Shown here piece after piece: positions 31,999 through 36,614 of a stretch of DNA of 64,000 nt. How positions within the stretch are numbered: the stretch's first letter is position 1; each line of letters begins with the position of its first letter. The DNA comes from Escherichia coli (GTDB lineage Bacteria; Pseudomonadota; Gammaproteobacteria; Enterobacterales; Enterobacteriaceae): the NCBI RefSeq assembly GCF_003991155.1, contig NZ_CP031293.1. One strand, given 5' to 3'. The position numbers were made by a program, and so were the translations under genes. Under the pieces are notes generated by a model, which did not search any database, was not told the origin of the DNA, and was given only the letters and a program-made list of their open reading frames with translations.

Positions 31999-32116
31999 CG
32001 GCTTTATTCCTCTTCTGCGGGAGAGGATCAGGGTGAGGAACTTTTACGCCTCACCCTCACTCTCTTCGCAAGGAGAGAGGTTCACAATTCACTGCACGTT
32101 TCAGGAACCATCGCTC

Positions 32117-34990
32117 ATGACACAGACGTTAAGCCAGCTTGAAAACAGCGGCGCTTTTATTGAACGCCATATCGGACCGGACGCCGCGCAACAGCAAGAA
32201 ATGCTGAATGCCGTTGGCGCACAATCGTTAAACGCGCTGACCGGCCAGATTGTACCGAAAGATATTCAGCTTGCGACCCCGCCGCAGGTTGGCGCACCGG
32301 CGACCGAATACGCCGCGCTGGCGGAACTCAAGGCTATTGCCAGTCGCAATAAACGCTTCACGTCTTACATCGGCATGGGTTACACCGCCGTGCAGCTACC
32401 GCCGGTTATTCTGCGTAACATGCTGGAAAATCCGGGCTGGTATACCGCGTATACTCCGTATCAACCTGAAGTCTCCCAGGGCCGCCTTGAGGCACTGCTC
32501 AACTTCCAGCAGGTAACGCTGGATTTGACTGGACTGGATATGGCCTCTGCTTCTCTTCTGGACGAGGCCACCGCTGCCGCCGAAGCAATGGCGATGGCTA
32601 AACGCGTCAGCAAACTGAAAAATGCCAACCGCTTCTTTGTTGCTTCTGACGTTCATCCGCAAACGCTCGATGTGGTCCGTACTCGTGCTGAAACCTTTGG
32701 TTTTGAAGTGATTGTCGATGACGCGCAAAAAGTGCTCGACCACCAGGACGTCTTCGGCGTGCTGTTACAGCAGGTCGGCACTACTGGTGAAATTCACGAC
32801 TACACCACGCTTATTAGCGAACTGAAATCACGCAAAATTGTGGTCAGTGTCGCCGCCGATATTATGGCGCTGGTGCTGTTAACTGCGCCGGGTAAACAGG
32901 GCGCGGATATTGTTTTTGGTTCGGCGCAACGCTTTGGCGTACCGATGGGCTACGGTGGCCCACACGCGGCATTCTTTGCGGCGAAAGACGAATACAAACG
33001 CTCAATGCCGGGCCGTATTATCGGTGTATCGAAAGATGCAGCTGGCAACACCGCTCTGCGCATGGCGATGCAGACTCGCGAGCAACATATTCGTCGTGAG
33101 AAAGCGAACTCCAACATTTGTACTTCCCAGGTGCTGCTGGCAAACATCGCCAGCCTGTATGCCGTTTATCACGGCCCGGTTGGCCTGAAACGTATCGCTA
33201 ACCGCATTCACCGTCTGACCGATATCCTGGCGGCAGGCCTGCAACAAAAAGGTCTGAAGCTGCGCCATGCGCACTATTTCGACACTCTGTGTGTGGAAGT
33301 GGCCGACAAGGCGGGCGTACTGGCGCGTGCCGAAGCGGCTGAAATCAACCTGCGTAGCGATATCCTGAACGCGGTTGGGATCACCCTTGATGAAACCACC
33401 ACGCGCGAAAACGTGATGCAGCTTTTCAGCGTACTGCTGGGGGATAACCACGGACTGGACATCGACACGCTGGACAAAGACGTGGCTCACGATAGCCGCT
33501 CTATTCAGCCTGCAATGTTGCGCGACGACGAAATCCTCACCCATCCGGTGTTTAATCGCTACCACAGCGAAACCGAAATGATGCGCTATATGCACTCGCT
33601 GGAGCGTAAAGATCTGGCGCTGAATCAGGCGATGATCCCGCTGGGTTCCTGCACCATGAAACTGAACGCCGCCGCCGAGATGATCCCCATCACCTGGCCG
33701 GAATTTGCCGAACTGCACCCGTTCTGCCCGCCGGAACAGGCCGAAGGTTATCAGCAGATGATTGCGCAACTGGCTGACTGGCTGGTGAAACTGACCGGTT
33801 ACGACGCCGTTTGTATGCAGCCGAACTCTGGCGCACAGGGCGAATATGCGGGCCTGCTGGCGATTCGTCATTATCATGAAAGCCGCAACGAAGGGCATCG
33901 CGATATCTGCTTGATCCCGGCTTCTGCGCACGGAACTAACCCCGCTTCTGCACATATGGCAGGAATGCAGGTGGTAGTTGTGGCATGTGATAAAAATGGC
34001 AACATCGATCTGACTGACCTGCGCGCGAAAGCGGAACAAGCGGGCGATAATCTCTCCTGCATCATGGTGACTTATCCTTCCACCCACGGCGTGTACGAAG
34101 AAACGATCCGTGAAGTGTGTGAAGTCGTGCATCAGTTCGGCGGTCAGGTTTACCTTGATGGCGCGAACATGAACGCCCAGGTCGGCATCACCTCACCGGG
34201 CTTTATTGGCGCGGACGTTTCGCACCTTAACCTGCATAAAACTTTCTGCATTCCGCACGGTGGCGGCGGCCCAGGTATGGGACCGATCGGCGTGAAAGCG
34301 CATCTGGCACCGTTTGTGCCAGGTCATAGCGTGGTACAAATTGAAGGCATGTTAACCCGTCAGGGCGCGGTTTCTGCGGCACCGTTCGGTAGCGCATCCA
34401 TTCTGCCAATCAGCTGGATGTACATCCGCATGATGGGCGCAGAAGGGCTGAAAAAAGCAAGCCAGGTGGCAATTCTTAACGCCAACTATATTGCCAGCCG
34501 CCTGCAGGATGCTTTCCCAGTGCTGTATACCGGTCGCGACGGTCGCGTGGCGCACGAATGTATTCTTGATATTCGTCCGCTGAAAGAAGAAACCGGCATC
34601 AGCGAACTGGATATTGCCAAGCGTCTGATCGACTACGGTTTCCACGCGCCGACGATGTCGTTCCCGGTGGCGGGTACGCTGATGGTTGAACCGACTGAAT
34701 CTGAAAGCAAAGTGGAACTGGATCGCTTTATCGACGCGATGCTGGCTATCCGCGCAGAAATCGACCAGGTGAAAGCCGGAGCCTGGCCGCTGGAAGATAA
34801 CCCGCTGGTGAACGCGCCGCACATTCAGAGCGAACTGGTCGCCGAGTGGGCGCATCCGTACAGCCGTGAAATTGCGGTATTCCCGGCAGGCGTGGCAGAC
34901 AAATACTGGCCGACAGTGAAACGTCTGGATGATGTTTACGGCGACCGTAACCTGTTCTGCTCCTGCGTACCGATTAGCGAATACCAGTAA
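32117..34990 (+). CDS. gcvP: Glycine dehydrogenase (decarboxylating), glycine cleavage P protein, 957 aa
   Basis: ORF 32033..34990 trimmed to [30 protein letters not shown]. Confidence 0.95.
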
Positions 34991-35012
34991 TTTACTGATT
35001 CGACTATCTTCT

Positions 35013-35036
35013 AAAGGCGCTTCGGCGCCTTTTTAG
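35013..35036 (+). terminator. Intrinsic terminator after gcvP
   Basis: aaaggcgcttcggcgcc hairpin followed by ttttt. Confidence 0.75.
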
Positions 35037-35117
35037 CTTGTTAATAAAGTGCGCTTTGTGTGTCGGATGAAGCGTAAATATAAACTCCTGGAGTTCAATA
35101 TATGACAGGAGCGCCAG

Positions 35118-35142
35118 GCCTGATGAGCGGGGCGCATCAGGC
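35118..35142. repeat. REP-like palindrome just downstream of the bglA stop
   Basis: gcctgatgagcggggcgcatcaggc, a perfect 8-bp-arm palindrome resembling REP cores. Confidence 0.45.
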
Positions 35143-35153
35143 ACATCGGGTAA

Positions 35154-36614
<1,461 letters not shown>

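Follow-up and report, generated by a model that had tools for sequence, protein, structure and literature searches.

A probable old ygfF deletion allele with a decayed BIME-1 between gcvP and bglA in Escherichia coli

Introduction

The window analysed here, a single 64,000-nucleotide stretch of Escherichia coli DNA, contains gcvP and bglA as convergent neighbours separated by a spacer of 163 bp (34991-35153). In K-12, a further gene lies between the two, the order in MG1655 being bglA (b2901), ygfF (b2902) and gcvP (b2903). The first-pass annotation of the window, which gave the K-12 arrangement correctly, left two readings of the short spacer side by side, namely a deletion scar or the ancestral state. 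The locus thus raises the question of whether ygfF was lost from this lineage or never present, and of what the spacer that stands in its place consists.

The product of the missing gene has recently gained some definition. YgfF, a member of the SDR family, shows glucose 1-dehydrogenase activity in vitro (PMC10645960) and has been assigned to the SDR63C group (PMC12506659). A full-text literature search on ygfF found no paper describing a presence/absence polymorphism of the gene.

The locus and its alleles

The genes bounding the spacer were identified by profile matches of the window ORFs to TIGR00461 (gcvP, 1839 bits) and PRK15014 (bglA, 1146 bits). The TAA stop of gcvP occupies 34988-34990 and the stop of bglA, which reads TTA on the + strand, 35154-35156. 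Over the spacer and 500 bp on either side the window is 100% identical to the complete genome of E. coli AR_0067, in which RefSeq annotates a 2874-nt gcvP with the same stop and a 1434-nt bglA. The mechanical gcvP ORF begins at GTG 32033 (985 aa), the RefSeq protein of 957 aa starts 84 nt downstream, and the TIGR00461 match starts at residue 45; the interval 32033-32116 is an ORF-calling detail only. The features of the locus are collected in Table 1.

Table 1. Features of the gcvP-bglA locus in the window, and loci carrying the transporter allele
Feature	Position	Strand	Remarks
gcvP, glycine dehydrogenase (P protein, glycine cleavage system)	32117..34990	+	last gene of gcvTHP
gcvTHP intrinsic terminator	35013..35034	+	stem AAAGGCGC / GCGCCTTT, loop TTCG, T run 35030-35034
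BIME-1 left flank motif	35037..35060	+	CTTGTTAATAAAGTGCGCTTTGTG; aligns with the ybiU-ybiT and mscK-rsmS flanks and with the transporter allele
y-type REP remnant	35061..35081	+	5' half only; identified from alignments with canonical copies and with the transporter allele's full-length y REP
BIME-1 L linker	35082..35113	+	conserved core TTCAATATAT; IHF-site consensus apparently degraded in the window variant
z1-type REP	35114..35143	+	contains the palindrome of the first-pass annotation (35118-35142); 5' GTAG mutated to CCAG; aligns to canonical z1
10-nt tail	35144..35153	+	CATCGGGTAA; between REP and bglA stop; inferred deletion junction at its left edge, 35143/35144
bglA, 6-phospho-beta-glucosidase A	35154..36587	-	convergent with gcvP
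Transporter allele loci	L003 6482-7378 (-); L085 1958-2851; L006; L005 tail; L096 3060-3809

Neither a YgfF-homologous ORF nor a remnant of one was found between gcvP and bglA of the window. With K-12 YgfF as the query, tblastn gave no match in the identical AR_0067 locus and 100% identity at the K-12 locus, and no ygfF remnant above chance was detected in the spacer by blastn-short or by local alignment with shuffled controls against the ygfF regions of K-12 and Escherichia sp. E1V33. The absence of ygfF from the spacer, as the first-pass annotation had claimed, is therefore confirmed by the stop coordinates and the tblastn result together. The idea, prompted by the Citrobacter spacers, that a CTGGAG-N8-ATG arrangement at 35087-35104 is what is left of the ribosome-binding site and start codon of ygfF was rejected, as this stretch aligns to the BIME-1 L linker described below. 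An Rfam search of 34700-35500 at E <= 1 matched no family.

A synteny comparison of the interval across E. coli and Shigella had been proposed, and its E. coli part was carried out on 5,426 complete genomes, 5,425 of which match the spacer with its 500-bp flanks. Three allele classes emerged, which together cover 5,419 genomes. The K-12-type ygfF segment is present in 3,053 (~56%), among them the named strains K-12, ATCC 8739, O111:H8 and O104:H21, and the short spacer in 2,349 (~43%), including Nissle 1917, O157:H7 and O145. The remaining class, in which a 298-aa transporter ORF takes the place of ygfF, comprises 17 genomes and was absent from the options that the first-pass annotation had weighed. 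ygfF is hence an accessory gene in E. coli, and its presence or absence is an ordinary accessory-gene polymorphism at a repeat-rich intergenic site. YgfF proteins also exist in Shigella flexneri and S. boydii. At least one of the genomes outside the three classes, E. coli 2017-02-2CC, carries the transposase gene of IS621 (IS110-like) in a repeat-rich spacer between gcvP and ygfF (locus L095, 4786-5766).

A decayed BIME-1

The spacer opens, on the gcvP side, with an intrinsic terminator. As in rho-independent terminators, a G+C-rich hairpin is followed by a T run, and folding gives -12.7 kcal/mol (z = -2.8) for an 8-bp stem with a 4-nt loop and TTTTT. All three E. coli allele classes retain this terminator. 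A promoter/terminator consensus scan returned no matches and missed it because A-U pairs of the stem consume part of the T run.

What follows the terminator is, judged by alignment, a decayed BIME-1 in the sense of PMC3333891, which describes the element as a y and a z1 REP in inverse orientation joined by a long conserved L linker, often with an IHF site. Complete copies, made up of a flank, y REP, L linker, z1 REP and second flank, are found in the ybiU-ybiT and mscK-rsmS intergenic regions, and 35038-35143 aligns with them at 83% (86/103) and 80% (78/97) identity, respectively, with a score that none of 1,000 shuffles reached. The order flank motif-y-L-z1, the core of the linker and the z1 hairpin are the same in the spacer as in these copies. 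Unlike them, the spacer lacks the right flank motif and retains only one complete REP, z1, the 3' half of y having lost ~15 nt, its CTAC included. Further, CCAG stands at 35114-35117 in place of GTAG in five of five short variants, and the IHF-like site appears degraded. Read by eye, the linker in the window variant departs from the IHF consensus WATCAANNNNTTR at about 3 positions. Canonical BIME-1 occurs at no fewer than 31 places per genome and in some genomes at more than 40, as expected of a dispersed multicopy element, and even the decayed copy of the window still matches a median of 3 places per genome. Since the REP-associated transposase needs GTAG for recognition (PMC3333891) and this motif is lost, the BIME-1 of the spacer is probably inert and no longer a substrate of that enzyme.

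These observations modify the description of the spacer as holding only the gcvP terminator and a REP-like perfect palindrome. Terminator and REP are indeed present, and the rest of the decayed BIME-1 is there besides them. The palindrome, for its part, is not perfect: its 25 nt consist of 8-bp perfect arms, an A/G mismatch, two further pairs and a GGG loop. It was matched in none of 100 shuffles of the window. Its interpretation as a separate REP insertion was rejected, as it is the z1 half of the same BIME-1. A search with the perfect-arm pattern GCCGGATG...CATCCGGC, which is too strict for y REPs, gave no match in the window.

At the RNA level, the spacer would serve as a convergent 3'-end region at which two transcription units meet, with the intact gcvTHP terminator predicted to end the + strand transcript. 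The z1 hairpin folds with -15.4 kcal/mol on the bglA mRNA strand, and its stem begins 11 nt after the TAA (35153-35143 = 11 nt; stem from 35142), placing it less than 16 nt past the stop. A REP less than 16 nt away from a stop codon has been reported to reduce translation of the gene before it (Liang et al. 2015, cited in PMC12306157). The z1 hairpin is probably a 3' stabiliser or translation damper for bglA mRNA.

Comparison with the K-12-type allele shows how much the two forms share. Both loci have the same flanking genes in the same orientation and the same gcvTHP terminator, and in both a REP-type hairpin follows the bglA stop at nearly the same distance. Because the REP of K-12 itself lies 12 nt from the stop, the REP-near-stop feature is the same in both alleles. 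The loci differ in that K-12 has 1,020 bp where the window, by alignment, has 117 bp. The two can be aligned from gcvP to the end of the terminator (...GGCGCCTTTTTAG), and their common sequence takes up again precisely at the stop codon of bglA. The K-12 segment contains a G+C-rich dispersed palindromic repeat, the ygfF promoter region, ygfF (744 bp) and the REP hairpin. Each allele thus carries private sequence, and the difference between them goes beyond a plain excision of the K-12 segment.

The G+C-rich palindromic repeat upstream of ygfF in K-12-type alleles (CCCCTCGCCCCTTTGGGGAGAGGGTTAGGGTGAGGGG...; locus L001, about 2063-2230) occurs at a median of 7 places per genome with 85-88% identity, and seems to resemble the 'Box C' or RSA class. 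The MG1655 RefSeq record lists no repeat features at the locus, and the repeat names used here consequently rest on alignment and on PMC3333891. Directly after the terminator and before this other repeat, K-12 keeps a remnant of the BIME-1 flank motif (GATGACAAAGT...). Since the transporter allele carries a BIME-1 and K-12 a flank remnant at the same position, the alignments indicate that the BIME-1 beside the gcvP terminator is older than the divergence of the three alleles. Divergent YgfF proteins (P0085 and P0086) led to no ygfF allele with another left end, both contexts being K-12-like.

One ygfF allele is a mosaic. In E. coli 23CRST032 (locus L088, 1721-2528), the left spacer is K-12-like and ygfF is 92.7% identical to that of K-12, and the right spacer and the end of bglA, with a TGA stop, are E1V33-like, which suggests recombination between lineages at this locus.

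Origin of the short allele

We consider it probable that the 163-bp spacer is an old ygfF deletion allele of single origin, which arose most likely by recombination between REPs. The ancestral Escherichia order would have been gcvP, terminator, BIME-1, ygfF, a REP hairpin, the 10-nt tail and bglA. The z1 REP of the BIME-1 upstream of ygfF would have recombined with the similar REP hairpin that lay shortly after the gene, with removal of the right flank motif, the ygfF promoter and ygfF itself. Left over would be the terminator, a decaying BIME-1 and the tail, as an allele now segregating in ~43% of E. coli. It is known from the older Salmonella and E. coli literature that recombination between dispersed REP copies leads to chromosomal rearrangements. 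The event proposed here resembles those in two respects: its junction is placed at a REP 3' end, and the two putative partners have the terminal sequence GCATC(A/C)GGCA in common. It differs from them in that the mechanism is inferred from one junction, with neither the precursor nor the reciprocal product observed.

The right-hand side of the spacer provides the evidence for this junction. When the alignment is anchored at the stop codon, 18 of the final 22 nt of the short spacer are identical in the ygfF alleles of E1V33 and 23CRST032, and in those two alleles the matching nucleotides follow a REP-type hairpin just downstream of ygfF. As the ends of REPs are alike by virtue of belonging to one repeat family, only the 10-nt tail counts as independent evidence for the right junction. 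The tail agrees with the two ygfF alleles at 8 of 10 positions in the window and at 9 of 10 in the majority short variant (P = 4e-4 to 3e-5), and with transporter alleles at only 3-5 of 10. This match to ygfF alleles suggests that recombination between REP hairpins is what removed the gene.

The model predicts a precursor in which ygfF is preceded by an intact BIME-1 oriented as in the window. No such allele was found among those examined: all E. coli ygfF alleles examined have a different, G+C-rich repeat upstream, and the BIME-1 copies of E1V33 are in the opposite orientation. E1V33 carries between gcvP and ygfF a tandem duplication with a unit of ~173 bp (locus L004, about 7240-7648, reverse strand), each unit comprising a copy of the gcvP terminator hairpin and a full BIME-1.

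A single origin is indicated by the features that the short variants have in common. The window, PE164, TUM18780, Nissle 1917 and O157:H7 represent five such variants, and in all of them the y REP has lost the same 15 nt, CCAG is present and the junction is identical. With regard to age, the window variant is 86% identical to the majority variant found in Nissle 1917 and O157:H7, the adjacent 450 bp of gcvP and bglA being 95-98% identical. Such divergence between short variants speaks for a long-standing allele rather than a recent scar. The word scar, as used in the first-pass annotation, therefore holds as far as derivation by deletion is concerned and fails as to recency. About 420 genomes carry the window variant at 95% identity or above, and it retains more of the canonical BIME-1 bases, for example CAGGAGCG.

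Alternative histories

The transporter allele bears on two other readings of the junction. Its 298-aa ORF has a signal peptide, is annotated 'transporter', matches Pfam PF13557 (Phenol_MetA_deg) with E = 4.5e-13 and may encode an outer-membrane channel. The gene stands in place of ygfF in E. albertii, Escherichia sp. MOD1-EC7003 and E. coli SCPM-O-B-8794, besides the 17 complete E. coli genomes of the census, and this distribution over E. albertii, two other Escherichia lineages and E. coli marks the allele as old. Directly after the terminator it has the same BIME-1 as the short spacer in the same orientation, with a full-length y REP, the right flank motif and a z1 that bears an internal deletion. 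Two Citrobacter genomes, sp. MGH106 (locus L012, 6497-8547) and sp. Cu233 (locus L035, 6497-8493), have the order gcvP, ygfF, transporter, bglA, their transporter being 75-76% identical to the Escherichia protein. The 455 bp upstream of the Escherichia transporter gene showed no usable homology to the ygfF-transporter spacers of these two genomes.

One may ask whether the junction represents a long-lived polymorphism of three alleles across Escherichia, with ygfF, an outer-membrane channel or neither, that is kept by selection or repeated recombination rather than drift and in which the BIME-1 and REP copies are the substrates for switching. We regard this as a doubtful proposition.

A second reading derives the short allele from the transporter allele by loss of the channel gene, ygfF having been lost earlier in that lineage. 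The BIME-1 of identical kind, orientation and place after the gcvP terminator is consistent with such a descent, as are an identical 23-nt flank CTTGTTAATAAAGTGCGCTTTGT, the age of the transporter allele and the fact that the left part of the spacer is closest to the transporter allele, not to ygfF alleles. The two alleles have, however, lost opposite parts of the element: in the transporter allele z1 is internally deleted and the right flank kept, whereas in the short allele the z1 stem is intact and the right flank absent, which argues that each was derived separately from an intact BIME-1. Further, the tail sides with the ygfF alleles and not with the transporter alleles. Descent from the transporter allele is accordingly an unlikely history for the short spacer.

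A third reading reverses the polarity and holds the short spacer to be the ancestral state of E. coli, with ygfF arriving afterwards in the ancestor of the K-12-like lineages, either by insertion or by homologous recombination that brought it back from another lineage of Escherichia. Some features of the distribution agree with it. Nissle 1917 and O157:H7, members of lineages usually placed deep in the species tree, have the short allele, and K-12, ATCC 8739, O111 and O104 have ygfF. The gcvP and bglA flanks offer homology for allelic replacement, and the 23CRST032 allele is a mosaic with a K-12-like left and an E1V33-like right end.

The family-level distribution, however, speaks against this polarity. 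An outgroup scan with BglA as the query, taking one genome per species, returned 80 loci; E. fergusonii, E. marmotae and E. ruysiae were not included by name. In more than 50 of the 80, from other species of Enterobacteriaceae, ygfF lies between bglA and gcvP, that is, at the exact site that it occupies in K-12. The arrangement gcvP-ygfF-bglA was seen in Citrobacter, Enterobacter, Klebsiella, Kluyvera, Kosakonia, Leclercia, Lelliottia, Pseudescherichia, Raoultella, Siccibacter, Mangrovibacter and Cedecea, as well as in Escherichia sp. E1V33. E. coli YgfF is 78-83% identical to that of every other genus sampled, and the other genera are mutually similar to the same degree or closer. No close donor genus stands out among the genera sampled, and E. 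coli YgfF looks vertically inherited by this measure. Within E. coli, several ygfF lineages are deeply diverged, the 6-7% nucleotide difference between K-12 and 23CRST032 or 2017-02-2CC being equal to that between K-12 and E1V33. Taken together, the outgroup synteny, the lack of a donor genus and the deep lineages indicate that ygfF is ancestral at the site, with a long history in E. coli, and that the short spacer is a derived, deletion allele. The spacer tail, which the short allele has in common with ygfF alleles, tells likewise against an ancestral short state, so that this reading is very improbable. Of the two options that the first-pass annotation had left open, deletion is thus upheld, and the ancestral state is set aside on the evidence of outgroup synteny, the vertical appearance of YgfF and the 10-nt tail.

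The short state is clearly derived at the level of the family as well, and arose there more than once. Salmonella enterica subsp. diarizonae and arizonae, Citrobacter koseri and Yokenella regensburgei are also without ygfF and have spacers of about 70-130 bp with REP-like hairpins, and in these four taxa the spacer sequences (loci L024, L055, L020 and L066, just after 6431) are unrelated to one another and to that of the window, which implies independent losses of ygfF. In Enterobacter sp. Bisph1 (locus L071, 6431-6722) ygfF has an internal deletion, with its start (ATGGCAGTTGCATTAGTCACCGGC...) and last ~100 nt kept, an independent and much fresher loss. Enterobacter, Klebsiella pneumoniae and Raoultella have ~3.6 kb of extra DNA between bglA and ygfF (6431 to about 10076; loci L031, L036, L041, L042, L047, L052, L061, L072 and others), and in a comparison of genera the bglA side of ygfF has the look of an insertion hotspot.

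Finally, that the absence of ygfF could be an assembly or sequencing artefact of the window is already refuted by the 100% identity of spacer and flanks to AR_0067 and the same junction in 2,349 complete genomes.

Implications

No new kind of element or mechanism is involved at this locus. What is mildly new is that three alternative alleles exist across Escherichia at one junction, and that a deletion has its junction at a REP. The importance of the finding beyond bookkeeping is small. It has one clear phenotypic consequence for the window strain, which has no YgfF glucose 1-dehydrogenase, an activity known in vitro. As ygfF belongs to the small number of y-genes to which an in vitro activity has recently been assigned, K-12 annotation and metabolic models that include it are not transferable to B2, O157:H7 and similar strains. 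The locus further offers a clean natural example of an old deletion with its junction at a REP, beside two alternative alleles, and could be of use in a small test of REP-mediated rearrangement and for marking lineages.
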